Source of the DNA: a virus
Taxonomy: Duplodnaviria; Caudoviricetes
Length of the DNA stretch: 40,979 nucleotides
Reading direction: 5' to 3' (one strand)
Virus record (IMG/VR): IMGVR_UViG_3300038436_000256
Span: 1 to 40,979 of that record
Each line of letters opens with the position of its first letter. The first letter of the stretch is position 1. The notes under the pieces were generated by a model, which was not told the origin of the DNA, made no database searches, and saw only the letters and a list, made by a program, of their open reading frames with translations. A program made the translations under genes and the position numbers. Positions 11,182 to 34,094 of this stretch are shown here, piece after piece.

Positions 11182-11290
11182 TAAACGCAGCATAATAGCC
11201 AAGGGTAAACTTCGTGAATTGCTGGAAACCCCTTAGAGACATGAAAGCTACAACGCAACTGGAAACGGTAAACGTGAATGCTGGAAAATT

Positions 11291-11902
11291 TCATGTATCG
11301 GGTGTGCGGTACTTTGGTTGTTTAGAGGTGAAGAAGTAATGTTCCCACTTGTAACGGTAGCAGCCAACAGGCGGATGGCCGATCCAATTCAGGAACGCAG
11401 GTATGCTGTTTTTGGATACGGTTATTTTCCCGTCTCGTGCGGCTCTACTTTTGAAGCCGATTTTCCTGAGTTGTTCAGAAAGAAACTCGCGGCTTGTGGG
11501 ATCGAAAGAGTGGGCGCAAAGACAGATTTGTCTCAGGTATCCCTTGTCGGTGTCAAAACCGCCGTCTCCACAGTACCAAAGATTGACGGTGCGTGGGCTA
11601 AGGGTAATATCCTTGGGCAAAACCTTTTTGCCAAATGGATACCAACGGGTGAAGAAATCACAAAGGTTTGGGGATACATGGCTAAAAGTTTGGTAGGTAT
11701 AGCCAGTCCCATACCCATTAGGTTTTGTGTGGGTAGGCCCAAATTGCAATCCAAATTCAGTAAGTACTTTCTGAATCCAAGCATTAAATTCTATGTGTTT
11801 GCAATTGTGACCAAACCGGGGGAAGCTTGTTATGCCGAGATGCTTCCCCCTGTGTTGAAGGCTGCTGTCACCAAGAAGCAGTCCGTCCATGGTGTCTTTC
11901 AT
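11291..11902 (-). CDS. LAGLIDADG homing endonuclease (two-motif), antisense within the intron
   Basis: MDGLLLGDSSL and LWYCGDGGF motifs, WYPFGKKVLP; GGAGAG RBS 5 nt before ATG 11902. Confidence 0.88.
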   Translation of the reverse strand: MKDTMDGLLLGDSSLQHRGKHLGITSFPRFGHNCKHIEFNAWIQKVLTEFGLQFGPTHTKPNGYGTGYTYQTFSHVSPNLCDFFTRWYPFGKKVLPKDITLSPRTVNLWYCGDGGFDTDKGYLRQICLCAHSFDPTSREFLSEQLRKIGFKSRAARDGKITVSKNSIPAFLNWIGHPPVGCYRYKWEHYFFTSKQPKYRTPDT

Positions 11903-11932
11903 TCTCACTCTCCAATGTATTCGCTTTTACCA

Positions 11933-11961
11933 ATACTACACCGAATAACAACCAAAGTCAA
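11933..11961 (-). promoter_or_regulatory. sigma70-type promoter for the LAGLIDADG gene
   Basis: minus strand TTGACT(11961-56)-N17-TAGTAT(11938-33). Confidence 0.65.
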
Positions 11962-12119
11962 CACCCAGATGGGCAATCAGCAGCCAAGCACCGTACAGGT
12001 GAAGGTTCAACGGCCAGGGGACATACCCCGTAGGGTCCAAGCGGACCCGAAGCGCGAGGCGGCGCAGAGAATCGCGTCGAAGATATGGTCTACACTGCAC
12101 GGAAACGCGCAGCGGATTC

Positions 12120-12148
12120 TTGACGATTCAGGGATTAAATGGTATTAC
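12120..12148 (+). promoter_or_regulatory. candidate promoter for the intron HNH gene
   Basis: TTGACG(12120-25)-N17-TATTAC with TG extension; -10 imperfect. Confidence 0.45.
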
Positions 12149-12178
12149 CAATGCAGCAACATAGCTATGGAGGATACC

Positions 12179-12673
12179 ATGAAAATTACGCTTGAAGTCG
12201 TTGAGAGGTTTCACGAAAAATGGGTTGTCAACAAAGAGAATGGTTGCTGGGAATGGACTGCCTCATTAGCCGGTAAAGGTTACGGGCAGATGAAGGTCCC
12301 GGGAACAAGACGGCAGGAATACGCCCACAGGATATCGTACATGATTCACTGCGGGAATATACCTGGCGACATGCAGGTATGCCATACATGCGACAACCCT
12401 AAATGTGTAAAGCCAAGCCACCTTTTTCTCGGAACGAGTGGTGACAACCACTTGGACATGAAGGAGAAGGATCGGCACCTTAATGGCGAGAGAAACAAGA
12501 AGGCCAAGCTCACGGAAGAACAGGTCCGGCGCATCCACGAGTTGCATTCGCAAGGGATGTCGCAAGGGAAAATTGGCGAGGCTTTCGGCGTTTCTCAAGG
12601 GCAGGTGTTCAGGATACTACACGGTATCCAGTGGCAACACATTTATCGTGAAATCAAATCGGGCAGGTTGTAG
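12179..12673 (+). CDS. HNH homing endonuclease with C-terminal HTH, in the 3' part of the intron
   Basis: CWEW...GYG...AHRISY...VCHTCDNPKCVKPSHLFLGT..DN; HTH SQGKIGEAFGVSQGQV; GGAGGA RBS at 12169-74. Confidence 0.9.
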   Translation: MKITLEVVERFHEKWVVNKENGCWEWTASLAGKGYGQMKVPGTRRQEYAHRISYMIHCGNIPGDMQVCHTCDNPKCVKPSHLFLGTSGDNHLDMKEKDRHLNGERNKKAKLTEEQVRRIHELHSQGMSQGKIGEAFGVSQGQVFRILHGIQWQHIYREIKSGRL

Positions 12674-12694
12674 CGTAACCTGTTGAATATACGG

Positions 12695-18871: not shown

Positions 18872-18886
18872 CGAGAGGCATTGATC

Positions 18887-19783
18887 ATGTCTACCCCGCC
18901 CGCCGGAGTAAGCCCGCTGTCATGGGATAACCCAACATGGCAGGCCATCTGGAAGAAGCAGAATCCGGGATACGGCCAGCAGCTATTGCCAGGGAATAAG
19001 CCGGTGGTCAATCCGGGGGTTACCGGCACACCGTACACACCGGAAGGTCCAGGTTTTGAGTCTCCGGCGAAAGCACCGGCCGTCGTTGATGCGAACGCGC
19101 CGCCGGCAGGGGTGAACCCGCTGTCATGGGCAAACCCAACTTGGCGCTGGATCTGGATGCAGCAGCACCCTGGGTACAGCCCTTCGGTTACGCCGGCCGC
19201 TCCGGGGACACCCGCGACACCTGAGCCACCAGGATTCAAGCCAGCGGCAAGCCCTGCCGGGACACAGGCAGGAACCGGATTCCAGAAATGGACACCGCCT
19301 GCCTGGTCCGGGGGAAACCCAACAGAGACAACCGTCCAAGGCCAGCTTGAAGGGCTTCTTGACCCATCGAATCCGCTGATGCAGCGGGCAAGAACCGGGG
19401 CGCTTCAGCAGATGAACGCTTCCGGACGGCAGAACTCATCCATGGCGACCACCGCAGCGGACGCAGCCATGTACGATACTGCCCTGCAGATTGCCACCCC
19501 TGACGCACAGAATGCCTTTGCCTACAACTTCGCGCAGACCCAGAACCAGTTTGACCTGTTCGCGCAACAGCTTGGCCTGTCCAGCCAGGAGAAGCAGCAG
19601 ATGACCGCGACCCTCGGAGGCTTGTACAGCAGCATCAACGCGGAGATAGGGCAGATACTGCAGAACAAAGACCTGGACGGGGCCGGGATGCAGGCGGCTC
19701 TGGACAAAATCTGGAGCGGCTATCAGGATACGATCACAACCTTTGCCGACCTGTTCGGCTATGACTTCACCTCGGCGGTGTAA
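18887..19783 (+). CDS. putative internal virion/ejection protein
   Basis: Two W-rich N-terminal repeats; TVQGQL..LL...NPLMQRA....QQMN..G..NSSMA region; position. Confidence 0.6.
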   Translation: MSTPPAGVSPLSWDNPTWQAIWKKQNPGYGQQLLPGNKPVVNPGVTGTPYTPEGPGFESPAKAPAVVDANAPPAGVNPLSWANPTWRWIWMQQHPGYSPSVTPAAPGTPATPEPPGFKPAASPAGTQAGTGFQKWTPPAWSGGNPTETTVQGQLEGLLDPSNPLMQRARTGALQQMNASGRQNSSMATTAADAAMYDTALQIATPDAQNAFAYNFAQTQNQFDLFAQQLGLSSQEKQQMTATLGGLYSSINAEIGQILQNKDLDGAGMQAALDKIWSGYQDTITTFADLFGYDFTSAV

Positions 19784-19794
19784 GGGAGCGCGTC

Positions 19795-20622
19795 ATGGGA
19801 TACCTGGACGATTATGATTTCGGGATGGACTACGGAATTGATACCACCGACTTTGCCGTGGATGTCGATAACGCCAACTACATGGACATGCCGGAAGCTG
19901 ATTTCGGGTTCGAGTTCAATCTCGATGATTATGTTGACTTTGACGATGCCACCTGGAACACGGAATTCGATACCCTGTTCGAGTCCAGCGATTACATGCA
20001 GTCGATCCTTGACGAAGAAGGGAACTATGACCCACTCGGCGAAGAAGGGTTCATGAGCAACCTGGAAATCGATGAGTTGTCGGACTCTGAGTTTGAGGAA
20101 CTGTACGGAACCGAGAAGCCGGGAGCGGAAGAGGGAGAAGGGAAAGGCTGGATGGATAAGTTCAATCCATTCGGGAGCAGTGAGGAAGAGGAAGAAAACG
20201 GTGTTTCAGCAGACCAGAAGGCAGCTCTTGAATCCAAAGGCTACAAGATCCTCGGCGAATTCAACGGGAAAACCTGGGCGCTGAATCCGTTTACTGGCAG
20301 GCCTGAGGTTCTGAAAGAGGATTCCGGATTCTTCGGCGGACTGTTCAGCAACAAGGGGCTTCTCTCCGGAATGGCGACCATGGGCGCGGCCGGCCTCAGT
20401 TACCTGGGCCAATCTGACAATATTGATGTCCAGAAAGAGATGTTCGAGGACAAGATGCGGCTTGAGCGTGAAATGCTGGCCGAGAAGGCCCGCGAATTTG
20501 ATGTCCGCCAGGGCGGATCAGGCGGAAGCGGGACGGCAAGGCCGGATGCGAACGCCGCGCACAACTCGGCGCTGGCCGCTTTGGCGAATAAATCAAGGGT
20601 TGGCGACTTCACCAAGAGGTAG
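19795..20622 (+). CDS. putative internal virion protein with extremely acidic N-terminus
   Basis: No K/R/H in residues 1-107; Gly-rich hydrophobic patch later; GGGAG RBS. Confidence 0.6.
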   Translation: MGYLDDYDFGMDYGIDTTDFAVDVDNANYMDMPEADFGFEFNLDDYVDFDDATWNTEFDTLFESSDYMQSILDEEGNYDPLGEEGFMSNLEIDELSDSEFEELYGTEKPGAEEGEGKGWMDKFNPFGSSEEEEENGVSADQKAALESKGYKILGEFNGKTWALNPFTGRPEVLKEDSGFFGGLFSNKGLLSGMATMGAAGLSYLGQSDNIDVQKEMFEDKMRLEREMLAEKAREFDVRQGGSGGSGTARPDANAAHNSALAALANKSRVGDFTKR

Positions 20623-20625
20623 AGC

Positions 20626-22188
20626 ATGGCTGACGGCGAACAGGGCTGGGGCGATTCGTTCGGGTGGGGCAGTTCTCTCCTGCAGGCGTACCTGAAGGGC
20701 GAATACAAGCCGGTCATCAAGAAGGGCGCGAAAGAGGCCGTCAACTATGGTGTTGAGCGGGCAGGAGACTGGGCGTTCATGCCTGGGGACGGACTGCTTG
20801 ACGGCGGGGGGTTCACCCCCCTTGGCCAGGGCGCAGCGGGCGGGCTCGGCAGCTTGGCCGGTAGCCTTCTTTCCGGAGATACTGAGGGGATGTGGGGAAA
20901 GGCCGGGACATCGGCGGTTGGCGGGTACATCGGCAATGCTGCAGGGCAGGCTGCTGTTCAGGGTGCTGGCGGAGTGGGGGCGATTGGTCCGCAAGCGGCC
21001 GGGCAGATGACCGGAGTGCTTGGCGCCGGGGTTGGCGGGATAGCTTCGGGCCTGTATGAAGGTTTCACGGAAGGAGATTTGTCGCTCGGCACCGAATGGG
21101 GGACCGTTGGCGGGATGGTCGGCTCTATCGTTCCCGGTATCGGGACGGTGGTTGGCTCTGTCATCGGCAATCTCGCTGGATCATTCATCGGCAGCAGGCA
21201 TAAGAAAAAGCCGTTCATGCAGGCGAGATACGACCAGGGGAATGCCGTTATCTACGATGAGAAGTCCGGGAAGTTTATCGCCCAGCAGCCAAAGGATTTC
21301 CGGGTCGTCAATCCCTACACGAAAGACGAGGTAACGCTTACCCCTGAGCAGCGGGAGAAGTCGCTGCGGGGGACATACGCCGTGAACCAGAAGTACGCCG
21401 ACCAGCTGAATCAAAAATTCGGGTCCGGATATCAAAACCTCAGCGCTGAAGATGCTTACCAGTTCGACACCATCATCGACAAATTCAAGCCGAAATCGCA
21501 GCCAGCAACACCGGAAGATTGGGAGGCCGAATACCGAAGCTACCTGAACAGCGCAGGCGGATCTGCGGGCGAAGGGATAATTTCTCTCGCCGATTACAAG
21601 CGAACGCGCTCGGGAGATTCTTATCAGTGGGCGGAAGCCGGCAAGGAGCCGTGGAAAAGCAGGGGCCAGCGCGGCCTGTACGACCAGGGCACATTCATGG
21701 ACGATCCGGCGACCACCGCGCTGTCAAGGATGGGGACCATAGGCGACAGGCCAGAAGAGTGGCGCCCGTGGGGGCTCGACAAGAAGCCGTACACCGGCAG
21801 CATGGAAGGCGATGATGGGGGATGGAGCGACGATCTCTATCGGCGGAAAAAGAAATACTGGGACACCTACAAGGACAAGGACCGCGGGAAACTGAGCGAG
21901 GACACCGCAAAGCGCCTCGATGAGTTGCAGGCCGACAGCGAGTTCGCCAGGCGGTATAATTCGGAGCCGGCGGGAAGCGGAACAGACGCTGACAGGTATG
22001 TGGATGCCCAGGCAGGGCTTGCTGACATGCTGGCCGGGAAATCAAACGTGCGCCGTGCATCATCGCGGGAGCAGCCGCAGCGAATCGAACAGGCCCCGGG
22101 CGGCATGAACAGAAGGATAGCAGGGCAGCAGCCGGGGCTCTTGGATGCGCTCGTAAGGATTCCGGAAGAATATTCAATGACCACATAG
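20626..22188 (+). CDS. putative ejection protein with glycine-zipper segments
   Basis: GTVGGMVGSIVPGIGTVVGSVIGNLAGSFIG. Confidence 0.6.
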   Translation: MADGEQGWGDSFGWGSSLLQAYLKGEYKPVIKKGAKEAVNYGVERAGDWAFMPGDGLLDGGGFTPLGQGAAGGLGSLAGSLLSGDTEGMWGKAGTSAVGGYIGNAAGQAAVQGAGGVGAIGPQAAGQMTGVLGAGVGGIASGLYEGFTEGDLSLGTEWGTVGGMVGSIVPGIGTVVGSVIGNLAGSFIGSRHKKKPFMQARYDQGNAVIYDEKSGKFIAQQPKDFRVVNPYTKDEVTLTPEQREKSLRGTYAVNQKYADQLNQKFGSGYQNLSAEDAYQFDTIIDKFKPKSQPATPEDWEAEYRSYLNSAGGSAGEGIISLADYKRTRSGDSYQWAEAGKEPWKSRGQRGLYDQGTFMDDPATTALSRMGTIGDRPEEWRPWGLDKKPYTGSMEGDDGGWSDDLYRRKKKYWDTYKDKDRGKLSEDTAKRLDELQADSEFARRYNSEPAGSGTDADRYVDAQAGLADMLAGKSNVRRASSREQPQRIEQAPGGMNRRIAGQQPGLLDALVRIPEEYSMTT

Positions 22189-22203
22189 AACGGGAGCGGA
22201 TTT

Positions 22204-22758
22204 ATGCAAAAGCTGAGAAGGCAGAGCGGGACGTGGCCAGCCGACCAGGAACAGGCGGTCAAGGCCAGAAAAGCGGTCAAGGACGCCATTTACAAGACGA
22301 ATGCCAAGAACTCCGTGGTCAAGGCGCTGGAGGCTGAAGATCCCCGGGCCAGGGTCGGTGGAGTCGGGCAGTTGGTCGGACAGGTGGTCGGGAAGACCGT
22401 AACCGCAGCAATGCAGAAGTACAGCGCCAGAGCCCACGCGAAGGGAATATTGAATCTGATCAAGGTCGGCGCCGACGTGGTGAACAAAATAGCGCAGGCG
22501 ACGAAGCGAGAGCCGCTTTCCCCGGAAGAGGAACAAGGCATGGCCAGTGTCGCCGGCAGCCAGGTTGAGGAAAGCATCAAGGTCATGGCCCAAGGCAAAC
22601 AGCAGCCCGGCCAGCAGCCTGCAGGCCAACAGCCGGCACCGGACCAAGCCGCGATGCAGCAGCCTGGAATGATGCAACAGCAGCCGATGCAGCAGGCCGG
22701 TCCGAACGTCGAGCAGCAGGGCGGGCTCCTTGAACTCGTAAGCAAGGGAGGTATGTGA
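22204..22758 (+). CDS. hypothetical protein with Q/P-rich tail
   Basis: GGGAG RBS; collinear ORF. Confidence 0.55.
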   Translation: MQKLRRQSGTWPADQEQAVKARKAVKDAIYKTNAKNSVVKALEAEDPRARVGGVGQLVGQVVGKTVTAAMQKYSARAHAKGILNLIKVGADVVNKIAQATKREPLSPEEEQGMASVAGSQVEESIKVMAQGKQQPGQQPAGQQPAPDQAAMQQPGMMQQQPMQQAGPNVEQQGGLLELVSKGGM

Positions 22759-23990
22759 TGGATTGGGGCGGATTGCTCGGGTCAATGTTTTTCGGGGGCA
22801 TGGCCGGCTATGGCCAGGGCGCGCTTGACGACCTTATCCGGGAAGAGGATGAGGCTGAAAAGTTCGCGCTGATGCAGCTGCAACAGGATTTCGCCATGGA
22901 GCAGCAGGAGAGCGGGCAGGATTTCCAGATGACGCTTGAACAGGGCCGGCAGAAACACGCCGAGGGTCTGTTCGATAAGGAAACCGACCGGGCCTATTCG
23001 CTTGCAGATAAGCAGATGGAACACGCTGAAACCATGTTCGGGAAAGAGTCTGAAAGGGCCTATGCCCTTGCCGACAAGCAGATGTCGCACGCGGAAAAGA
23101 TTGCCAGCGAGCAGCTAGCCGCGACCCAGAAGCTGCTCGAAACCAGGGAAGAGGCTGACGCCAACAAGATTGTCAAGGGTATTGATTCGCTCTCGGGCAT
23201 GTTCCAGGAGAAGATGGGCATGGAGCCGGACCAGGCTTTTGCCGCAGCGCTGGTTTTCACCAATAGCTCAGTAGGAGGGAAGGGGAAGGGCGGGCGTCAA
23301 GCGTCTTTTGGCGACATGCTGAAGGTTGATGAGCAGGCTTGGGAAAACTCCTTGCGCCGGGCCGGGGCCAGAAGTGCAGAACTTGCCACGCAGGAACAGC
23401 TCGATGCGGCCAAGGGTTTTGTTGATGAAGAGAAAGATGGGTTGCTGAAGATGGCTGGCGGTGTAGGCGGCGGCGGGTTCGATATCTCAAGTTTGTTCGG
23501 TGTTGGCGGCGGTAAGGGGGAGAAGGTGCCTGACGCTGTGTTCGATGTCCTTTCATTGCGGGCGCAGGGGAAGACGGAGGAGTGGGGAAAGCTGTACAGC
23601 GGCATGTCCAACGAGCAGAAGGCGATTACCAACCAGCTGGCGTCAGTGGTTGACATGGTGACAAAGGGTGACGGAGAAGAGGAAGGCACGGAACCGGCGC
23701 CGCAGGGTAATATCGACGCGAGCAGTCACGATTCTTCCTTTATGGGTGAAGGGCTCCTTTCTCCCGTGGTGGACGCGGCCGGATTCCAGACTGATATCGG
23801 TTCAGCGACGGCCGGGGCAATAAGGATGATCCAGCGTTCCCCCGAGGTCATGCAGAAAATAAACAGGTGGGCGCTTGAAACGAACAATGATGTCGGTCAG
23901 GCCGTTATGGATTTCGCCTCATCCTGGATTGAGGCAGGTGAACCGAACCTGGAAGCATACGCGAATTCAGCCGATTTCCTCGGGGAATAA
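22758..23990 (+). CDS. putative ejection protein with 22-aa internal repeat
   Basis: N-terminal Gly/hydrophobic segment, coiled coil, HAE..F.KE..RAY.LADKQM x2 (22956-23099); GGAGG RBS. Confidence 0.6.
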   Translation: MDWGGLLGSMFFGGMAGYGQGALDDLIREEDEAEKFALMQLQQDFAMEQQESGQDFQMTLEQGRQKHAEGLFDKETDRAYSLADKQMEHAETMFGKESERAYALADKQMSHAEKIASEQLAATQKLLETREEADANKIVKGIDSLSGMFQEKMGMEPDQAFAAALVFTNSSVGGKGKGGRQASFGDMLKVDEQAWENSLRRAGARSAELATQEQLDAAKGFVDEEKDGLLKMAGGVGGGGFDISSLFGVGGGKGEKVPDAVFDVLSLRAQGKTEEWGKLYSGMSNEQKAITNQLASVVDMVTKGDGEEEGTEPAPQGNIDASSHDSSFMGEGLLSPVVDAAGFQTDIGSATAGAIRMIQRSPEVMQKINRWALETNNDVGQAVMDFASSWIEAGEPNLEAYANSADFLGE

Positions 23991-23993
23991 ATA

Positions 23994-26900
23994 ATGGGCA
24001 TCCTTGACGACGAGCTGGGGATTGATCCTTTCGACGGCGGATCATCCGGTCCGGATAGTGAGCCGCTGTTTGCCCTGGACCGGGAGCTGGCCGGGTACGA
24101 CTTTGAGGATGGCGCGGAAGAGGATTCCGGCGACTTCCTTCGGGGCGTCTCGACCACCTTCAAGCAGGTGCCTCAACTCCTGCGCGGGGTCGAGGCAGGG
24201 ATAGGCGCGGCCGGTGAAAAGCTGTTCGGCGAGGGCGGAGACTGGACGAACATCAAGAAGGCTGGGGTTGCCGGGTATCTGGACTGGAGCGAACGTATCG
24301 CCAAGGACGCCAAGCTCTCGGACAATCTTGATTACTCCTGGGGCAGGGCGAAAGATGGCGACTTGGGGGCGCTGATTGATTGGCTGCAGTACGGGGCCGG
24401 GTACACCGTTGGCCAGGGCGCACAGATTCTCGCCACGGGCGGGGCCGGTTCGCTCATCGGGAAGACCGCCCTCAAGGGTGGGGTTGAAAACCTTGCCGCC
24501 GGGATGGTGAAAAAGGAAATGGCCACACTGGCCGGGTCAAAACTTGCCGGCGGGCTCGCGGCGGAAGAGCTTGCAAAGCTGGCTGTCAGTAATGTTGCCT
24601 CGAAGATCGGGCAGACAACGACCATGGCCCTTACCGCCACCGGGATGGAAGGCGGCGAGATATTTGGTGGCCTGGTCTCCGGCACTGAGAAGGAAGGCCG
24701 GACACCGACCGGGAGTGAACTGGCACTGGCCTTCGGGTCCACTCTGGCTGCCGGCGGACTGGAGTTTGTCGGGGATAAGCTGGGCCTGGACCTGATGCTT
24801 GGCAAGTCCAAGGTATTCAGCCCTGCAAAGACAATGACTGGAGTTGCCGGACGAGCTGGCCGGGCCGGACTGGGTATGGCTGCGGCCGCTCCGGTAGAGG
24901 CCGGGACGGAATATGCGCAGACCATGCTGGAGGAATTCGGCCAGGGCCGCGATCCGTGGAGCGAAGAATCAAGACGGCAGGCGTTCAACGCGGCAGGGCT
25001 CGGCGGGCTCGGCGGGGCGATGATCGGCGGTGGTGGCGGGCTCCTTTCCCCTGCAGATATCAAGACTGCCCTGGACGATTCCGGGCGGTTGTTGGATGAG
25101 GCTGACGCCCTGGACGAAACGGACATGCCCACGGTTGACGATGTGTTTGCCGCGCATGACAAGCGGACGACAGCGGCCGGGATCATGGACATCATCGAAA
25201 GGCCGACACCAGAGATTGATACCGTTGGCGAGGTGCTGGGCGACGACCTGCCGATTGACCAGCCGGGGATGAGCCGGGTTGAGCAGGTTGATCCCATTTC
25301 CCCGCTTGTCAGACAGTGGGATGAATTCATTCAGAGACGGGAACAGAAGAAGGCTGAAGCCGTTGACCTGATGCCGGAAGAGTTGAGGCCGGTGATCGGG
25401 ACCATCGAGCGGCAATTGTCCGAGGGCGAAACCGGAATCCGGTTCCAGAAAGAGGACGGATCTTGGGACGGGGTGAAGTCCACAAACCCAGACTGGATCA
25501 AAAAGCCAGCCCTGGAGAAGTACGACCAGGTGAACGGGACAAGTCTCGCCAAACGCCTGAACAAGTTGAGTCTCAAAGCCACGATCAGCAAGGTCCGCCA
25601 GGGCAAGGAGCTTTCAATAGGGCAGGAAGAAATCTGGGAATACGTTCAGGATGTGGCCAGGACCACGGCTGACCCGGAAGTAGCGGCGGCCAGCGAATAC
25701 ACCAGGATCGAGAAGGAAGAGGGCATTGAACTTGAGGCCCCGCACAAGGTGGTTGTCGCCGACCTGAACGACGGGGATAAGGTTGTCGTTCACAAGAACG
25801 GAATCCCTGATGTGGTGACGGTGAAGGGTCGCGATGATGACGGGAATGTTGTCCTTGAGGATGGCAATGTTTTCCGGCTGGATGACTTCGACAAGCTGGA
25901 GATTTCCGGGATCAAGCGGGCACAGGAGGTTCAGCCCAAGGCAACCGAGGTCATCGAGGACCCGAAATCGATAGCGAGCGGCCAGGAAGTAAACACCTCT
26001 CCGTCAGAGTCGATGAAGGAGGCGGGAAACTACAAGAAGGCCCACGTTGCAGTTGACGGGCTCGATATTTCCATTGAAAACCCTGTTGGGTCCGTCAGGT
26101 CTGGAAAGGATAAAAACGGCAGGGAGTGGAGCCAGGAGATCAAGGCCGATTACGGGTACATCAAGGGGACCGTAGGCCACGACAAGGACCATGTTGATAT
26201 TTTCGTCAAGCCCGGATACCAGGGCGGGGCCAAGACCGTTCATGTCGTTAATCAGGTTGATCCGGAGACGGGGAAATTTGACGAGCACAAGGTTGTCCTC
26301 GGGGCCGGGTCGGCTGGTGAAGCTATGGAAACTTACCTGGCAAACTACGAGCCAGGCTGGGCCGGCGGAAAGAATGTCGTCGAGATGTCCACTGATCAGT
26401 TCAAAGAGTGGGCGAAGTCCGGCCAGGCGAAAAGGGGAGAGCTTCCTGGAAACGAACAAATTACCCCTTCTATTTCTCAGCCTAAAACGACAAACGAACC
26501 GACAAAACAGCCGGTCAATTTGCCGCAAGAATCCCCTGCAGCTCCCCCCATTGAGCAGCAGGGCGCGGGGCAGCCGGAAACTCCCTCTCCGGTTGTCCCT
26601 GCTTCTAAAGAACCGTGGCAGATGTCAAAAGATGAGTGGGCATCTGCCATTGAAAGCGGAAAGCCTGGAGCCTTTGCGACATCACGGCAAGAGGATTGGG
26701 GTAGCTTACGAGGACAGGGGAAGCGCAGTGGTAGTATGGTTAAGGGCTCGATGCGTGACTCTACCTTGCAGGGGAAAAGAAATTACACCGATATCGTTGG
26801 TAAATTGCCGAAAGAAGAACGTGCCGATGTTTATGCAACTCTTGGCGACGAGAATCATGTCCTGACACAATATGCCAAGGCCAGAAGCGGCGGATTGAAC

Positions 26901-29900
26901 CACGAAGCCGCGATTCTTCACGCAATATCTGTTACTGACAAAGATGTTGACGCGCACAAAAGAGTGGTCGAATTGGCGATTTCAGCGGGCAAGCCAGTAC
27001 CGCAAGCCATTTTAGATTCCTACCCCGACCTCCAGCGCAGAGAACCAGCGGAGAGCAAGCCGGAACCAGCAACCACACAGGGGGCCAGCAATGGGCAAGA
27101 AGGGCAAGGGAAGGGAGAGCTGCTGAAAGAAGAGAAGCCGTCTACCAAGGCGGCTCCAGCCTTCCCCATTTCCAAGCACGGCAGCGCGGCAATCCTCGTA
27201 TCCGGCAACCCTGACGATATCAAGGCCAAGCTGGCAGGTGCCGGTATAAAGGCCAAGGGCCGGGTAAAGAAAGGGCGCGGTATGCTGTTCCCGGTTGGGA
27301 TGGAAGGGGAGATCAGGGGGGCGCTTGAAAAGGAGGCTGATAAGACCGCCGGCACCCTCACCAACGAAGACGGAACGCCATTGGTTGTTTACCGTGGCGA
27401 CTCTCTTTCTCCTGGTTCATTAAAGCCTTCGACCGGCGGAGATTTAGGGACCGGGATATACCTGACGGAAGACAGGTCCACGGCTGAGTATTTCACCGAT
27501 GGAACCGACGAGAGCCATACCAAGGCATACAATATCAAGATGGGGAATCCATTCGGCCTCATGTCAAAAGCCCTTCCGAAAAGTAAAGGGTGGAAGGCGA
27601 TGATGAGGACTGTCCCGGAGGGATTGAATCGGGACAACCTTAGAAAGTGGGCAAAGAACGAACTTGACATCAAAAATACTTACGGGTTTCTTGCCAGGAG
27701 CTTCGGATTAACCCCGGACACCTTCAACGCCTTTCTTGAAAAGCATGGTTTCGATGGGATAATCAGCCAGGGCACAAGGGGCGTTTCTGAATACAGCCGG
27801 GAGTATGTTGTATTCTCTCCAGATCAGGTTGTGGCGGTACAGGATGATTCTGTTCAACGCGATACGGATGGAGTGGATACCGTGGAGCCAGCAGAAGTTG
27901 ATGCGGCGGCAACCACATTTGACAATGCCGCCGAAGGGGATATAATAAGTGAAGGAGGAATAGAATATGAAATATCAGAAATCAGATCCCCTGCCAGTGG
28001 TAAGCACCGGGCCGGTGGAAGTGCCATACCGGGTCAACTCGCCTTGTTTGAAAACAAGGAAATGCCGAAAGGCAAGCGGCAAAAATTCATTGAATCGTAC
28101 CCGGCTAAGATAGGAACATTCTATTCTGATTTTAAGAAAATAGAGAACGCCGAACAGGCCGCGCAGCTTGTTTCCCCTATAAGCTTTCGTTCGCAAGAGA
28201 CGTTTGCCGTTATTGCCCTTGACGCCGAAAAGCGCCCCATCTCAGTTCTTCAGCATTCAGTAGGGACAAATATAAGAAGCCAAGTCGCTCCAGGTTTGGC
28301 CGTTGGGTCAATCCTTAATACGAAAGGCGTTGATTCTGTTTGGCTTGTTCATAATCACCCGTCCGGGAATGCCACAAAAAGCGATGATGATACCAGGCTG
28401 ACCAGGCACTTTGAGAATGGGACAAGGGGGCTTGGAGTTACGGTAGTTGGCCATGTAATTGTTACTCCAAACGGGGAAGCTTCAGAGCTTGACAATCTTG
28501 GTAATTTCATCAGGACGTTCAGCATCACGGAGAAGTCGGGGAAGAATAATCCGGTTAAGGTAACCGACAGGCGGCTGAAGGGGGATAAGCACGAATACCT
28601 TGGAGGTGAGGAAATATCCTCGTCTCAGGAGGCAAGGGAGACGCTCGATAAATATTCACAAGGAAGGCCAGGGATATTGCTCTTGAACCCGCAGAACCGG
28701 CCTATCAGGTTCTTCAGTCTTCCCGTCTCAAAAATGGAACTGCTACGGGAGGACGGGAAACGCGGCGTAGCTGCTGAATTGTACAGATATTTTGATAAGC
28801 GCAATGCAGTTGCAGCGGCAATAGTCTCATTTGGAAGGAACGGGAGATACCCCCGCGCTGAACAGAATATCAGCAATTTTCTCCGTCAAGCCGGCGTGAC
28901 ATTGCTTGATATTATCGCAAACGGGAATTCTCTGGCAGATTTAGGGGAGATCAGAAATTTAGCCTCTCGCGGAGACTACGAAGGGAACCCATTTTACTCC
29001 AAATCCACCGTCGGCACCACGGACACCACCCCTGAACAGGTAACGGCAGAGCTGCGCGATTTCTTGGGGCAGGGCGAGCGTAATCTTTCCCGGGCCGGGA
29101 AGCTGGAGATTGTCAGGACCGGAATGGGATTGCCGGAGGCGGTGAGGCGCGGAGCTTTGTTCATGACGGCTTGGCACGTGATCCCGTCAACCTTTTTTGC
29201 TAACCGGGTAGGGGATTCCCCGCAAGTCAAAAGCCTTCCTGATGCTGTGATAACCGATGCCAAGCTGTTGGCTAATTTTGTTAATACTCATGCCTTCATC
29301 AAGAAGGGCCTTGACGGCTTCGATGTCCCAACGCAAAAAGCGCAACTCGGAAGAGTGCTTAGGCTTATCGAGAACGACGAGATTAGAAAGTCTGTTGTCG
29401 AGTCTATCCCTGTTGACATGATGGACATGCTCGCCGGTAAGGAGCTTACGCCCGAGGTGTTGCTCCATGATGTGTCGGTGTTCAGGGACTTGCTTTCCGT
29501 CGATGGTGATAATTTTGTAGCCCTTCCGGTTGATGTGGCCAGTAGACTTGCCAATATCGTAGCAATTGCGGGTGCAAAAAATTCTGTGCTGAGTCGATTT
29601 TATGTTGGAACTACATCGCTCAAAGGTGCGCCCGCAGACGGGGCAAATACAGGAGCGCCTTCTCTTTCTGCACTCGATAGAGCAGTGGAAGACCTTGACC
29701 CTAGCGGCCCGTTCATTGGCGATGCGCTTAACGGCTCCGCACTTCGAGCAGGTACCTTCAACCATGCTGACACCTCATTGTTTGATGATAATAACATTAT
29801 ACCAAAAAATGAGATTATTGCAACTAGTAAAATTTTCTCTGATGAAGATGTCCAGATAACCGCCCTCTATTCCAAGGACGGGTCAATTGTAGGCGCATAT

Positions 29901-32900
29901 TACCAAGGGAAAATCTACCTGGTAGCCGACCGCATGAAGCCCGGAGATGCCAAGTACGTCATGATCCACGAGGGCGCCCACGCTCTCCTTAAAGAAGACC
30001 CGCTTTTCTCCGACCAGAAGGGCCGTATCCTGGGCCGTTTCGTCTCGCTCAAGGGCAAGTCCGCCGCGGTTGATGCAGCATACTCAAGGGCAGAGAAGGC
30101 AAAGGGAAGGGTTGGCACACTGAATGAAGAGGCCCTGGCCTACTTCCTCCAGGAAAAGGCCAACCACAAGCACTCTATCTTCCGGCGGATCGTCGCGGCT
30201 ATCAAGTCGGCACTGGTCCGGCTGGGCGTGCCGGTGGACAAGCTGAACTTCCAGGAGGCTGATTTCGTCGCGCTCTTTGTTGGAGGCGTGAAAAGGTTTG
30301 CCCGCAATGTCCAGGTTGAGCAAGGGGAGTTTGCCGGGGAGGCTGAGGCGTCTTATTCCAAAGACGGCAAGCCCGTCCAGCGCGTCACCCCCGAAATGTT
30401 ACAATCCCCCGAGTTCAAGAAATGGCAGGGCGATTCAGCAATAAAGGATGTGGTCTGGCACGGGACCGACTCAAAGGGCTTCCTGCAAGACGGCTCTTGG
30501 ACCTTCGATTCGACCAAGGGCAAGAGCAAGCACCATTCGCCCCTCGCTGGCCTGGGGAACTTCTTCGCCCTGGACCGTACCGAGGCGGCAGGCTACGGCA
30601 GCAGAGGCGTGGTCAGGCCGTTTTATGTGTCGGTAGAAAATCCACTGCGGCTCAACTCCTACGATTCACGGCTGAATAACCTGAACACCAGGGAAGAGGC
30701 GGCAGCCTTCGCAAAACGGATGCAGGCGCGTGGACATGACGGGATAGTGCTGGAGGACCAGGGGCATGTTATCGTTTTCGACCCGGGCAATATCAAGTCG
30801 GCTGAGTTTAATACCGGGGAGTTCGACCGGGCGAATAAGGACGTGCGGTATTCCAGGCAGCAGTTTGAGGAAGATTTCGATGAGGACACGCGGGACGCGG
30901 CGAAGATCGTCAAGAACCGCACCCCGAAGAACGATATCACCGCGCTGGGGCAGATATTTTCTACCCCTGATTATCTGCTCAATGCAGACCCGGCAGGAAA
31001 GCGGCTCTTTGAGACGCAACCGGAGCGGCGGGACCGGCGGTTTGAACTGGAGAACGACATCTTTAACAAGACCGGCGAGAATACCGGGTTTGTCCACGAA
31101 ATGACCAAGCTGCGGAAAGAAGACCCGGCAGAGTACGAAAAGGCCAAGGACTATCTGCTCAAGACCGACAAGACCGGCGAGGCGTTCAGAATAAAGCAGT
31201 GGTCCGGGTACATTGTCAGGGGCCTTGACGGCAACGAGATCGACCGTACCGAGAAGTCGGAAGATGCCGATACCATCGCCAGGAAACAGTTTGAGACCGA
31301 GGCGGCCAGGAAGTACATCAAGCCCCTTCCCGTAGGTCTGGACCGGGTAAAGCGGTATCAGGTCGGCGACAGGATCGTTGACAACTACGATAAGGCCAGA
31401 GTGCTTTCCCGCGACATGGCCAGGGCCGACAAGACCTACATCGCCAGCTACAAAACCGAAAAGATCGAGCAGTGGGAACTGCACGACCCGAAGAAAAAGC
31501 TGGTCGGGACATTCAAGACGGAGCGTGAAGCGGTTGATGCCCTGGAACAGGCTGAACACGATTATCTATCAGGGAAGGGCTTCTCCTTCAAGGCTACCGG
31601 CGGGGTGCTGGCTTTCCGGCGGATGACCAACAGGGCTTTTGATCACCAGATAGCCGACCTGAAACAGATCATCGCCGAGTGCGAGAAGCTGAAGATCGAC
31701 CCGCCGACCGTGACCGTTGTCGATGAGTCGCGTCGCTGGGGGATATTCGGGCACGGGAAACGGGTAGGCGAATTCTCCACCAGGAAAGAGGCGGAAAACG
31801 CGGTCTACAGCCTTAAGAAAACCGATTTCGCGCAGTACAAGGGGTTGGAGGTCAGAAGGCAGCAGGACGCCGAAATAAAGAAGGAAACGACCCTGCAAGA
31901 CATCATGGCAATGATGGGTGAGCTGCGGGGCTCGTACTTCCCGAGGCAGAGGGAGGAGGGCCGGGTGATCCTGCGGGCGACGAAGGGCGAGAGCCGGATC
32001 ATGGAGAAGTTCGACTTCTACGCCATGGACCAGGAATATATCGACCCGGAGACAGGTGTGGTATCTGCCGCGAAAGTCAGGCAGGCCAGCAGCTTCATTA
32101 AAAATCTGTTCAACAGGATATCCGGACGCATACCGTTTGTCAAAACCCTGGAGAAGCGGGCGCGGCAGTTGGAGCGTGACGGCTACAAGATCAGCATCGA
32201 ACGTGATTCCTCCCTCCCGGAAACGGTGTTCGACCCGGCCGGCCTGATTGCCTCGATCAGCTCTTTGATGAATGAAGCGGTTGATCAGGTGAAGGATCAG
32301 GAACTCAGGGGCGCCGCCGCTCAGGAAGCGAATAAGATCATCCTCAACGGGCTGGCCGAACAGTTCAAGAAACGCGGGTTCCTTTCAGCCAGGATAGCCA
32401 GATCTGATGAATATTGGGAAGGGTTCGAGACTGACCCGCTCAAGGCTGGGACGCAGTACGCCAAAGGGCTGGCGGCCGGTATTGCCAAGCGCGAGACATC
32501 GCAAAAAATGGTGCTGATCATCACCGGGCGCGATGAGTCCTGGGATGACTGGAAAGCTGACAAGGAAGATCCGCAGTGGGAAGATTATCAGGAATTTGTC
32601 AGGAACAGGGCCATTGACCCGAAGCAGCAGGGCACTCTCTACAAGGAAGCGATCAGTTTCACCCGTGAGATGCTGAGAAACGACGAACAGGGCGACAGGA
32701 TCATGGGCACCTTGCGCGGGCTGGCCACGTTCAAGTTCTTGGGGTTCCGGGTAAGCTCGGCGGCGATCAACGCCACCAACATGGTCCAGGCTGTTCCGGC
32801 CACCATTTCCGCGCAGACCGGAGGGAGCATAGCGGCCGCCCTGAATGAGATCGGCAGGGCCGCCAGCATTTACGGCAAGTACCGACTCGGCAAGCTGACT

Positions 32901-34094
32901 GGAGCTGATCAAGCCATTATGGCCGACATTCACCAAAGGGGTTGGGTAGAGGCGCAGTTCAACCACGAAGCGGCCGACGCCCTGCGGAATAAGGTTGGTA
33001 ATCACATGGACACCTTCCTCGGCTGGTCAATGCTGATGTTCGGCGCGGTTGAAAAGGTGAACCGGGCGACCACCATCTTTGCCGCCTACAAGCAGTTCAA
33101 GAAACAGTTTCCGGAAATGGACCACGAAACGGCTATGGCCAAGGCCAAGCATGTTTCCGACCGGGCGCATGGCATTTACGACAAGAGCACGGCCCCGGCA
33201 TGGTCCAGGGGCGCGAACAACCCGGTAAAACTGCTCTACACCTTCGTCAAGTTCGGGCACAACTACTTGCTGAACACGGCGGAGATGATCGGCAAGGACC
33301 AATGGAAGCAGGCCGGGTACATGATCCTTTCCCCGGCGATCCTCGGCGGCATGGGTGCAAGTATTGCCACAAAAGCCCTGTTCCTGGCGCTCGGGCTTGG
33401 CAGTGACAGCGATGATCCGGAAGAGGAATTCTACGCCTGGGTGGAAGAGAAGTTCGGCAGCGATACGCTCCCCCGGCACGGCCTGGCCGGGTTGCTGGGC
33501 GTGAATATCAAGGGCAGTCTCCAGGTCAACAATCCATTCCCGACAAAGATTACCGAATTGTTCGGGGCACCCGGGGCGGTTATCTTCGACGCGGCCAAGG
33601 GGATGAAGCATCTGGGCCGGGGCGAGTTTTACAAGGCCGCTGAGGATATCATGCCGGCAGCGGTCGGCAATGTCTCCAAAGCGATCAGGGAACACCGGGA
33701 GGGCGTCACCACCGACAGTTCCACGCCGGTCTATTACGGTATGGAGCCTCTGAAGGGCACGGCGACCGAGGCGGCCATTCGCTTCCTGTCATTCAGCCCG
33801 TCCAGGATCAGCGCCGTTCGGGAAAAACAGTGGAGCGAGAAGAAAGTTGCCGGCAAGTTCGCTGATCGGAAAAGCGAAATCTATTCGCGGTTCAAACGGT
33901 TCTATCTGCGCCCGCCGGAAGATCAGGACAGCGGCGATTATGCGGAGCTGCTGAAGATGGTCGATGCCTTCAATGAAGATGTTTTTGCATCCGGCAGATA
34001 TGATATCAGCCCAATCACCGGGAAGAGCTTGACCTCTGCGATAAAGCAGTCGATGCGCCCTGGCAGGAGGGAGAGGATGCGAGAGTCGCAATAA
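23994..34094 (+). CDS. giant polyvalent virion/ejection protein (3366 aa)
   Basis: Gly/Ala-rich N-terminus; InPase-like domain (GNYKK.H...IENP.GS.RSG...YGYI...D.D.VD, ~26020-26420); ART-PolyVal-like (YRG...GTGIYLT...EYVVF, ~27370-27830); JAB/RadC (HNHPSG...S.DD, ~28140-28470); HExxH peptidase (IHEGAH, ~29965); second ART-like (WHGT...GNFFA...GHDGI...VFDP, ~30450-30850); helical C-terminus. Confidence 0.85.
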   Translation: MGILDDELGIDPFDGGSSGPDSEPLFALDRELAGYDFEDGAEEDSGDFLRGVSTTFKQVPQLLRGVEAGIGAAGEKLFGEGGDWTNIKKAGVAGYLDWSERIAKDAKLSDNLDYSWGRAKDGDLGALIDWLQYGAGYTVGQGAQILATGGAGSLIGKTALKGGVENLAAGMVKKEMATLAGSKLAGGLAAEELAKLAVSNVASKIGQTTTMALTATGMEGGEIFGGLVSGTEKEGRTPTGSELALAFGSTLAAGGLEFVGDKLGLDLMLGKSKVFSPAKTMTGVAGRAGRAGLGMAAAAPVEAGTEYAQTMLEEFGQGRDPWSEESRRQAFNAAGLGGLGGAMIGGGGGLLSPADIKTALDDSGRLLDEADALDETDMPTVDDVFAAHDKRTTAAGIMDIIERPTPEIDTVGEVLGDDLPIDQPGMSRVEQVDPISPLVRQWDEFIQRREQKKAEAVDLMPEELRPVIGTIERQLSEGETGIRFQKEDGSWDGVKSTNPDWIKKPALEKYDQVNGTSLAKRLNKLSLKATISKVRQGKELSIGQEEIWEYVQDVARTTADPEVAAASEYTRIEKEEGIELEAPHKVVVADLNDGDKVVVHKNGIPDVVTVKGRDDDGNVVLEDGNVFRLDDFDKLEISGIKRAQEVQPKATEVIEDPKSIASGQEVNTSPSESMKEAGNYKKAHVAVDGLDISIENPVGSVRSGKDKNGREWSQEIKADYGYIKGTVGHDKDHVDIFVKPGYQGGAKTVHVVNQVDPETGKFDEHKVVLGAGSAGEAMETYLANYEPGWAGGKNVVEMSTDQFKEWAKSGQAKRGELPGNEQITPSISQPKTTNEPTKQPVNLPQESPAAPPIEQQGAGQPETPSPVVPASKEPWQMSKDEWASAIESGKPGAFATSRQEDWGSLRGQGKRSGSMVKGSMRDSTLQGKRNYTDIVGKLPKEERADVYATLGDENHVLTQYAKARSGGLNHEAAILHAISVTDKDVDAHKRVVELAISAGKPVPQAILDSYPDLQRREPAESKPEPATTQGASNGQEGQGKGELLKEEKPSTKAAPAFPISKHGSAAILVSGNPDDIKAKLAGAGIKAKGRVKKGRGMLFPVGMEGEIRGALEKEADKTAGTLTNEDGTPLVVYRGDSLSPGSLKPSTGGDLGTGIYLTEDRSTAEYFTDGTDESHTKAYNIKMGNPFGLMSKALPKSKGWKAMMRTVPEGLNRDNLRKWAKNELDIKNTYGFLARSFGLTPDTFNAFLEKHGFDGIISQGTRGVSEYSREYVVFSPDQVVAVQDDSVQRDTDGVDTVEPAEVDAAATTFDNAAEGDIISEGGIEYEISEIRSPASGKHRAGGSAIPGQLALFENKEMPKGKRQKFIESYPAKIGTFYSDFKKIENAEQAAQLVSPISFRSQETFAVIALDAEKRPISVLQHSVGTNIRSQVAPGLAVGSILNTKGVDSVWLVHNHPSGNATKSDDDTRLTRHFENGTRGLGVTVVGHVIVTPNGEASELDNLGNFIRTFSITEKSGKNNPVKVTDRRLKGDKHEYLGGEEISSSQEARETLDKYSQGRPGILLLNPQNRPIRFFSLPVSKMELLREDGKRGVAAELYRYFDKRNAVAAAIVSFGRNGRYPRAEQNISNFLRQAGVTLLDIIANGNSLADLGEIRNLASRGDYEGNPFYSKSTVGTTDTTPEQVTAELRDFLGQGERNLSRAGKLEIVRTGMGLPEAVRRGALFMTAWHVIPSTFFANRVGDSPQVKSLPDAVITDAKLLANFVNTHAFIKKGLDGFDVPTQKAQLGRVLRLIENDEIRKSVVESIPVDMMDMLAGKELTPEVLLHDVSVFRDLLSVDGDNFVALPVDVASRLANIVAIAGAKNSVLSRFYVGTTSLKGAPADGANTGAPSLSALDRAVEDLDPSGPFIGDALNGSALRAGTFNHADTSLFDDNNIIPKNEIIATSKIFSDEDVQITALYSKDGSIVGAYYQGKIYLVADRMKPGDAKYVMIHEGAHALLKEDPLFSDQKGRILGRFVSLKGKSAAVDAAYSRAEKAKGRVGTLNEEALAYFLQEKANHKHSIFRRIVAAIKSALVRLGVPVDKLNFQEADFVALFVGGVKRFARNVQVEQGEFAGEAEASYSKDGKPVQRVTPEMLQSPEFKKWQGDSAIKDVVWHGTDSKGFLQDGSWTFDSTKGKSKHHSPLAGLGNFFALDRTEAAGYGSRGVVRPFYVSVENPLRLNSYDSRLNNLNTREEAAAFAKRMQARGHDGIVLEDQGHVIVFDPGNIKSAEFNTGEFDRANKDVRYSRQQFEEDFDEDTRDAAKIVKNRTPKNDITALGQIFSTPDYLLNADPAGKRLFETQPERRDRRFELENDIFNKTGENTGFVHEMTKLRKEDPAEYEKAKDYLLKTDKTGEAFRIKQWSGYIVRGLDGNEIDRTEKSEDADTIARKQFETEAARKYIKPLPVGLDRVKRYQVGDRIVDNYDKARVLSRDMARADKTYIASYKTEKIEQWELHDPKKKLVGTFKTEREAVDALEQAEHDYLSGKGFSFKATGGVLAFRRMTNRAFDHQIADLKQIIAECEKLKIDPPTVTVVDESRRWGIFGHGKRVGEFSTRKEAENAVYSLKKTDFAQYKGLEVRRQQDAEIKKETTLQDIMAMMGELRGSYFPRQREEGRVILRATKGESRIMEKFDFYAMDQEYIDPETGVVSAAKVRQASSFIKNLFNRISGRIPFVKTLEKRARQLERDGYKISIERDSSLPETVFDPAGLIASISSLMNEAVDQVKDQELRGAAAQEANKIILNGLAEQFKKRGFLSARIARSDEYWEGFETDPLKAGTQYAKGLAAGIAKRETSQKMVLIITGRDESWDDWKADKEDPQWEDYQEFVRNRAIDPKQQGTLYKEAISFTREMLRNDEQGDRIMGTLRGLATFKFLGFRVSSAAINATNMVQAVPATISAQTGGSIAAALNEIGRAASIYGKYRLGKLTGADQAIMADIHQRGWVEAQFNHEAADALRNKVGNHMDTFLGWSMLMFGAVEKVNRATTIFAAYKQFKKQFPEMDHETAMAKAKHVSDRAHGIYDKSTAPAWSRGANNPVKLLYTFVKFGHNYLLNTAEMIGKDQWKQAGYMILSPAILGGMGASIATKALFLALGLGSDSDDPEEEFYAWVEEKFGSDTLPRHGLAGLLGVNIKGSLQVNNPFPTKITELFGAPGAVIFDAAKGMKHLGRGEFYKAAEDIMPAAVGNVSKAIREHREGVTTDSSTPVYYGMEPLKGTATEAAIRFLSFSPSRISAVREKQWSEKKVAGKFADRKSEIYSRFKRFYLRPPEDQDSGDYAELLKMVDAFNEDVFASGRYDISPITGKSLTSAIKQSMRPGRRERMRESQ
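29187..29765 (-). CDS. HNH homing endonuclease nested antisense inside the giant gene
   Basis: Two CxxC...CxxxC Zn modules, GY...EHRHIME..LGR.L...EHVHHVNRDRLDNRLSNL core, C-terminal HTH; GAGGTG RBS 5 nt before ATG. Confidence 0.9.
   Translation of the reverse strand: MVEGTCSKCGAVKRIANERAARVKVFHCSIECRKRRRSCICPVCGRTFERCSSNIKSTQHRIFCTRNCYDIGKSTGHINRKGYKIITIDGKQVPEHRHIMEQHLGRKLLTGEHVHHVNRDRLDNRLSNLVVLDKPKHSSELRFLRWDIEAVKALLDEGMSINKISQQLGIGYHSIRKAFDLRGIPYPVSKKG
29796..29823 (-). promoter_or_regulatory. sigma70 extended -10 promoter for the nested HNH gene
   Basis: minus strand TTGCAA(29823-18)-N16-TATAAT(29801-796), preceded by TGG (TGn). Confidence 0.75.

Follow-up and report, generated by a model that had tools for sequence, protein, structure and literature searches.

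Antisense HNH endonuclease genes nested in codon register within giant phage genes whose own frame stays free of stops and cysteines across them

Hidden HNH insertions, namely the ShiLan domain and Pacc40 gp60, have been described in mycobacteriophage DNA methylases (Arsenault, Gosselin, Gogarten 2025, PMC11855218). ShiLan is a zinc-finger HNH gene hidden in an in-frame, stop-free insertion without intron or intein signal, patchily distributed and proposed to be retained in the host protein; it lies on the same strand as its host, in the third frame, no ribosome binding site (RBS) was found for it there, and the gene is described as non-essential and its product as mostly unstructured by prediction. 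Endonucleases encoded opposite a translated, stop-free host frame are also known from inteins that carry antisense LAGLIDADG or VSR-like enzymes (Gosselin et al., bioRxiv 10.1101/2025.01.02.630785), where a Hint domain splices the peptide out. T4 mobA (genes 39/60) and Aeh1 mobE in nrdA are likewise HNH genes in a coding region without a splicing element, but as far as the accessible text of PMC2988022 goes their host is split into two polypeptides. Here we describe an HNH gene nested on the antisense strand of a giant gene in a window of 40,979 nucleotides (nt), positions 1 to 40,979 of the IMG/VR virus record IMGVR_UViG_3300038436_000256. As in ShiLan, the HNH gene is hidden in an in-frame, stop-free stretch without splicing element, and the top-ranked GenBank phage matches of its product (36%) lie under ShiLan-type methylase genes. 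Unlike ShiLan, it is antisense and not on the same strand of a DNA methylase gene, it has its own promoter-like site and RBS, its family occupies many sites in predicted giant virion-protein genes, and the host frame across it is subject to a ban on cysteine. It differs from the mob genes in that its host is one open frame, and from the antisense-endonuclease inteins in that its family has no Hint domain near 40 inserts and its reverse-strand peptide follows host composition. A first-pass annotation, made from the sequence of the window, had proposed a mode of tolerance distinct from introns and inteins; this stands as regards the absence of a splicing element, but since retention has been proposed for the same-strand ShiLan HNH and antisense intein endonucleases are known, the mode is not wholly new. 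Our reading of the literature, mostly openly readable papers, found no account in which polyvalent or ejection protein genes harbour HNH genes that are antisense and lack a splicing element, and the accessible part of the survey of polyvalent proteins (PMC5512222) does not mention nested endonuclease genes ('homing' occurs 0 times and 'HNH' once).

The cassette occupies 29178..29831 (654 nt), that is 218 codons free of stop and cysteine in the host frame, its bounds being set by DNA alignment with the related locus L012 and by protein comparison with the host-protein relatives P0008 and P0080. On its minus strand lies a gene of 192 amino acids (29187..29765), in codon register with the host gene (23994..34094, plus strand, 3366 amino acids), with the order zinc finger, zinc finger, HNH, helix-turn-helix (HTH): the two zinc fingers are of the CxxC type, the HNH_3 match lies above the Pfam cut-off (E 3e-10), the HTH matches are weak, and 10 of the 11 PHROG families matched are named HNH. 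An RBS, GAGGTG (29771..29776, minus), stands 5 nt ahead of the ATG, and upstream of it an extended -10 element, TGgTATAAT (29796..29804, minus), and a -35-like hexamer, TTGCAA (29818..29823, minus), make up a TTGCAA-16-TATAAT pattern with TG extension that spans 29823..29796 in a 66-nt upstream region of 29% GC. The nested gene, its exact register, its promoter and RBS and the 218 stop-free codons had all been noted in the first-pass annotation and were found again here, although the promoter pattern taken alone is weak, with two sites in 1.4 kb against 0.9 +/- 0.8 in shuffled sequence. The junctions of the cassette, for which the annotation had itself raised the possibility of a chimera, are real and no artefact of assembly: run X1, a possible source of the record, holds the whole stretch in one contig, contigs of X2 span the left and right junctions and one of X3 the right one, with 0 differences, all three runs belonging to one study. 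Because nothing but TTA, CTA and TCA codons can close an antisense frame in register, and these make up 1.4% of the codons of this phage, an open antisense frame of 192 codons has a P of about 0.07 for a single gene under phage codon usage; the single case is thus unremarkable, and significance rests on the family.

Such a family exists. The plus-strand read-through peptide of the cassette matches 286 of 1.84 billion protein cluster representatives at E <= 0.001, and 131 of the 152 stored proteins that contain the stretch are at least 1000 amino acids long. The peptide belongs to no Pfam or PHROG family, so that the annotation's statement that it resembles no domain holds in this respect, but with 286 matching clusters it is not unique. 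The motif conserved in the peptide corresponds, in reverse complement, to the HNH active-site motif. A search with an alignment of seven peptides returned 15 viral loci, 12 of them in a giant open reading frame (ORF) with an intact antisense Zn-HNH-HTH gene and the remaining 3 ordinary free HNH genes. Since searching with the plus peptide favours open plus frames, a search was also made from the HNH side, with degenerate nuclease-motif patterns and ranking by similarity to the window HNH, covering the best 80 viral and best 80 metagenome loci (14 and 22 of 64 parts scanned). Without exception, the best 11 of the 80 viral and the best 12 of the 80 metagenome loci had their HNH gene antisense and in register within a long ORF; two of these top loci were seed contigs found again. 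Further down the ranking, most genes either stood free or were nested in ORFs of 500-750 codons on the same strand. Nested genes of the kind for which the first-pass annotation had suggested a search account for 40 of the 180 loci gathered, and 36 of them form one tree group without a free member (FastTree 0.989; IQ-TREE 89/86, 80 rows), 23 having been found from the HNH side only. The median identity within the group is 36%; all members are antisense and in register in giant genes, at many sites, and in 36/36 the host frame continues to either side for 100 codons or more, or as far as the contig reaches. A TATAAT, TACAAT or TAAAAT hexamer recurs at 24-31 nt in L012, L120, L021, L022, L033, L122, L128 and L130, and a -10-like hexamer lies within 80 nt in 16/36 members against a background of 3.5%.

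Some choices define these counts. L003, L037 and L125, duplicates of L002, L023 and L018, were dropped beforehand; L165 was counted among the non-nested loci, its 492-codon antisense frame ending at the HNH start and no giant host being present; L024-L026 and L106-L119 lie outside the tree set; and start codons of the HNH genes in relatives were picked by rule. A second viral scan (alignment A3) mostly found the same contigs again and was set aside. With a single sequence as query, neither the right flank nor the plus peptide gave a match in viral contigs, and the window HNH gave none in genome contigs.

The host frame of the 36 genes is never closed. Over 6605 codons TTA, CTA and TCA number 0, where the leucine and serine usage of each host gene predicts 163, and the 23 loci found from the HNH side only likewise have 0 host-frame stops (132 expected). 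The other four frames hold 112-586 stops, and among non-nested HNH genes the in-register reverse frame is open in only 15/134. All 6 nested loci below 45% GC are open, as opposed to 3/48 of the non-nested HNH genes in that range. Cysteines (ACA/GCA in the host-frame count) are also absent from the 36, 0 against 145 expected, whereas free HNH genes have 1.9-3.2% cysteine in that frame and only 4/116 have none; 19 same-strand or related loci were excluded from the free set in the cysteine, codon and pair comparisons. ACA, GCA, TCA, TTA and CTA are missing altogether and ATA, GTA and CCA (tyrosine, tryptophan) are reduced, but AGA, CGA, GGA, CAA and AAA are not depleted, so there is no bias against A at third positions. 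This family-wide ban on stops and cysteines is the new part of the finding. A search of a third collection with another member as query gave 10 loci, of which the top 2 are nested and obey all three rules and the other 8 are not nested.

The HNH frame is at the same time under strong constraint. In the 14 closest of 630 pairs its ratio of non-synonymous to synonymous substitution (dN/dS) is 0.19-0.37 (0.24 for the window against L012), that of the plus frame being 0.32-1.17, and differences between nested genes peak at HNH third positions. The catalytic and zinc residues are invariant in 36/36, including H115, H116, N124, N128 and H137 of the HNH core, suggesting that the nuclease is likely active. 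Host-frame residues are kept at 0.48 in 7 nested pairs and at 0.39 in 120 free pairs of 60-75% HNH identity, pairs that are few, non-independent and different in GC; a crude substitution simulation also hinted at extra plus-frame constraint, and the empirical comparison was relied on instead. Taken at the level of sequence, these patterns indicate that both strands are under selection and that the nesting is real and widespread. The comparison of both strands had been suggested in the first-pass annotation, and the case that would have spoken against its interpretation, a conserved plus peptide over a broken minus frame, was not encountered: both frames are intact in the relatives with DNA, and the open host frame in 36/36 fits its proposal of tolerance by read-through.

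The cysteine ban parallels the composition of the hosts, which themselves have almost no cysteine: 137 long proteins contain 88 among 372,567 residues. In the window, a provirus record with terminase, SU10-like portal, capsid and tail genes, the giant protein has a single cysteine and the five plus-strand genes upstream (18881..23990) have none, so that six successive genes of a predicted ejection operon (18881-34094) total one cysteine. Cysteine suppression has been reported as a conserved feature of ejection proteins, with near-absence of the residue in those of N4/DEV, and has been suggested to reflect passage through the periplasm (PMC11445570, in its accessible part); from this feature and its position in the virion gene block, the giant gene product is predicted to be an ejection or head-cargo protein. 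It also has the make-up of the polyvalent proteins of Iyer et al. (2017, PMC5512222), which the available portion of that paper presents as multidomain virion proteins with ART, InPase, JAB and HExxH domains: several conflict domains, namely InPase, two ART-PolyVal domains (27363..27848 and 30450..30824, plus), RadC/JAB and a split HExxH domain, are joined in one giant protein of the virion block.

No sign of splicing was found at the insert. Rfam detected no intron there or in nine related loci, the sense RNA of the insert folds like its shuffles (z -0.13), and neither a ribozyme core nor room for one is present, given that seven cleanly bounded inserts exceed their HNH gene by only 18-75 nt. 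The same Rfam scan picks up a likely group I intron in the capsid gene of the window, where the host frame stops right past the junction, and thus serves as an internal control. No Hint family lies within 330 residues of the 40 inserts, which have variable ends, no cysteine and no conserved splice-junction residues, so that intein features are missing as well; in all this the first-pass annotation, which had seen no intron or intein signature, proved right. With only 18-75 spare nt and no intein found, the read-through peptide is likely retained in the mature protein, and, given the cysteine ban in cysteine-poor hosts, the simplest reading is that this mature protein is one that is probably injected. 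AlphaFold2, run on a 13-row alignment, predicts a helical domain at peptide residues 20-142 (29235..29603, plus; predicted local distance difference test (pLDDT) mostly 74-90) and is of low confidence elsewhere. The model found no Foldseek match in BFVD or PDB and the protein atlas gave no usable one; we treat the predicted fold as a lead only.

The cassette sits in a loop of the split HExxH domain, presumably zincin-like, whose N-terminal half (29004..29159, plus) is 71% identical to the empty allele P0002 and whose C-terminal half (29865..30308, plus) keeps an intact HEGAH at 29967-29981, with a weak Zn_peptidase_2 match in the relative P0014. Between these halves and the cassette remain two short pieces on the plus strand, FMTAWH (29160..29177), where P0080 reads ALFMTAWHGSPH, and IFSDEDVQIT (29832..29861). 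They correspond to the first and last strands of a module that is intact in the same loop of P0008 (AWHGSP...YVIFNDADVEI). The first-pass annotation had taken the flanks for those of an ART-PolyVal-like module, and P0008 agrees with it, but its module has no Pfam match, PF18760 included, and it is only through the motifs WHG, GLYF and YVIF that the lost module can be called ART-like. As that annotation had anticipated, homologues without HNH exist: the loop is empty in P0002, P0005, P0010 and P0159, while P0007 and P0009 hold other modules there and P0014, P0023, P0087 and P0006 an HNH shadow, i.e. the read-through peptide. The claim that an HNH gene invaded and replaced a module fits the window, where the module core is lost, but many relatives are plain insertions. 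In P0080, P0073 and P0016 the shadow lies inside an intact module, and in P0032 and P0011 just past such a module, with the last strand duplicated. That strand travels with the window's HNH subgroup, the promoter-side end being constant in the window, L012, L120, P0003, P0004 and P0014 and the other end variable.

In a 12-row tree of flanks the window groups with the empty alleles (93/91; 66% and 61% identity), and a 100/99 branch separates its flank from that of P0014, the inserts of the two being 63% and the flanks 39% identical. Filled and empty alleles and a patchy distribution, as expected of a homing endonuclease, are found among these 12 host rows. HNH subgroups match host sites, namely the end of the ART-like module, WF|GDSKVVD, the LFQ..PRA loop and a site upstream of InPase, a pattern consistent with spread directed to particular sites, from which the genes now and then jump to new ones. 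No target-site duplication was detected at the window junctions, the longest shared word being 6 nt (6-9 nt in 8 loci). At L123:3696-5405 the peptide word EYPDL is repeated on both sides of the insert, which hints at insertion by microhomology.

We consider it probable that these are selfish, likely homing, antisense HNH genes whose host translates through their stop-free, cysteine-free reverse strand and keeps the resulting peptide; homing is proposed because the distribution is patchy. Early in infection, or else in the lysogen, a sigma70-type promoter of the cassette itself would drive transcription of the HNH gene in opposition to the late operon; the product would nick or cut the giant gene of a related phage near a conserved module end, the cassette then being copied in by repair. 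For the window subgroup the target would be the coding sequence of the last ART-like strand. For an insertion to survive, it would have to lie in a linker or permissive loop and leave the host frame open. At the window site the ART-like module would have lost its core during or after insertion; two further ART-PolyVal domains remain. The read-through peptide would be retained in the virion protein, and the host gene would be essential. Several points weigh against this account. The IQ-TREE support of the group is moderate (89/86 from 123 columns, the bootstrap not having settled), the search was seeded with 13 of the 36 members and 4 more nested genes lie outside the group. Only 16/36 have the -10-like hexamer, a pattern picked after the data were seen. 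The HNH model (pLDDT 85) has I-HmuI as its top PDB match, and the match is weak (Foldseek E 0.043). The window HNH and L012 lack the second C-terminal histidine (H141 to Leu) that is kept in 33/36, and which we take to have a colicin-type role. HNH subgroups track host modules, an association that could arise in part from modules being shuffled without any cleavage, and no very close relative with an empty allele was found. Among 50,697 GenBank phage records none matches the plus peptide, and no cultured phage carries it. Finally, five proteins have two copies, and 13/158 copies are without a motif-compatible pattern, pointing to some decay.

Part of this evidence would also suit a domesticated moron, a nuclease that serves the phage by cutting the DNA of competing or superinfecting phages or by aiding module recombination, and that moves passively with the modules while read-through is unchanged. 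Its own promoter and antisense orientation in a provirus, the strong purifying selection on it and the way HNH subgroups follow host modules all speak for such a role, which we nevertheless regard as rather unlikely, given the many unrelated insertion points, some in conserved motifs like WF|GDSKVVD where empty alleles exist, the inserts that are more alike than their flanks between distant hosts, and the close relationship in sequence with the hidden HNH of ShiLan, which PMC11855218 reports to be homing. The two roles are not exclusive and can coexist. Far less probable is that the functional unit is the read-through peptide, as a helical polyvalent domain, and the HNH frame a kept relic or by-product: the peptide is conserved in 286 clusters, is predicted to fold and keeps its residues better in nested than in free pairs, but the minus frame is open with all catalytic residues in 36/36 loci, changes peak at HNH third positions with the lower dN/dS on that side, the conserved plus motif mirrors the HNH motif as its reverse complement, and starts, RBS and -10 boxes are kept, so that this reading is already largely refuted.

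Removal of the insert, by RNA splicing or bypass of a kind not recognised here, by protein splicing or by proteolysis, for example by the neighbouring HExxH domain, is equally hard to credit. Antisense endonucleases in inteins are known (10.1101/2025.01.02.630785) and self-processing has been proposed for polyvalent proteins (PMC5512222), each according to the accessible part of the source, and proteolysis following injection is compatible with all results presented here; on the other hand, excision at the RNA level needs neither an open frame nor a cysteine ban, and the small amount of spare sequence, together with the lack of any Rfam intron, Hint family or conserved splice-junction residue, speaks against it. 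A chance or artefactual overlap has a negligible probability. Antisense frames are often open in GC-rich genes, the P of about 0.07 for the window gene would allow one, and long antiparallel ORFs are usually non-coding (10.1101/724807, in the portion available), but both frames encode recognised families and all 36 are open, including 6 loci under 45% GC; the recurrence of the junctions in other runs, with 0 stops and 0 cysteines across the 36, refutes it.

If antisense genes read through by their hosts are indeed homing, a bolder extension can be put forward, on balance somewhat doubtful. In a third self-contained homing lifestyle within essential genes, beside introns and inteins, the reverse strand of a widespread HNH lineage would have evolved into a portable, stop-free, cysteine-free and compactly folding domain that inserts in frame at many sites of ejection proteins and is packaged and injected with them. 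The family also offers a long, fully nested antisense overlap under apparent two-strand selection, an arrangement held to be rare in prokaryotes, and the cysteine ban is a clean sign that the reverse-strand peptide of a parasite obeys the constraints of the host protein. Dozens of independent contexts are thereby available for studying the birth of a protein domain from antisense sequence, and the cassettes mark loops of ejection proteins that would tolerate about 170-250 foreign residues. What would pass for a 'conserved domain of unknown function' is, in hundreds of giant phage proteins, the shadow of an unannotated nuclease gene; annotation pipelines miss the nuclease and could create a false family from the shadow.

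Among the related loci, L143, L059, L142 and L157 carry nested antisense HNH genes outside the main group, also with 0 stops and 0 cysteines in the host frame, which suggests repeated origin. In L001:5890-6513, L088, L093 and L094, free HNH genes lie antisense to late operons, beside large genes, and have open in-register reverse frames, so that they are possible precursors of nesting. L035, L120, L126, L127 and L131 have the same-strand +1 frame open over the HNH core as well (213-308 codons), giving three open frames. Two shadow copies per giant protein occur in P0006, P0015, P0016, P0017 and P0033 (and P0087); in P0006 and P0087 they stand in tandem in one loop, one of them apparently decayed. 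Twelve loci (L008:5929-6474, L058, L075, L086, L087, L090, L098, L101, L137, L150, L152 and L162) hold an out-of-frame HNH on the same strand of ORFs of 500-750 codons and extend the ShiLan arrangement to uncultured phages, L008 being methylase-like and having a TATAAT box ahead of its HNH inside the host ORF. These same-strand loci keep 1-6 host-frame cysteines each, and such as L008 and L087 fall outside the group of 36.

Elsewhere in the window, a 224-codon ORF (26191-26865) lies on the same strand as the giant gene in another frame, over InPase and the next linker, without a PHROG match; ten long alternative ORFs over the giant gene and six elsewhere were likewise without one. The major capsid gene contains a likely group I intron at about 11182-12694 (Rfam 29 bits, E 7e-5, below the gathering threshold), which carries an antisense LAGLIDADG_2 ORF (11291-11908, minus) and a sense HNH-HTH gene ending at 12673 and is followed by a short 3' exon. 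The 451-amino-acid ORF listed at 11318-12673 arises where the reverse frame of the LAGLIDADG gene, which is open, continues into the sense HNH, and the real start of the latter is probably near 12170. Unlike the insert of the giant gene, this open frame contains cysteines.

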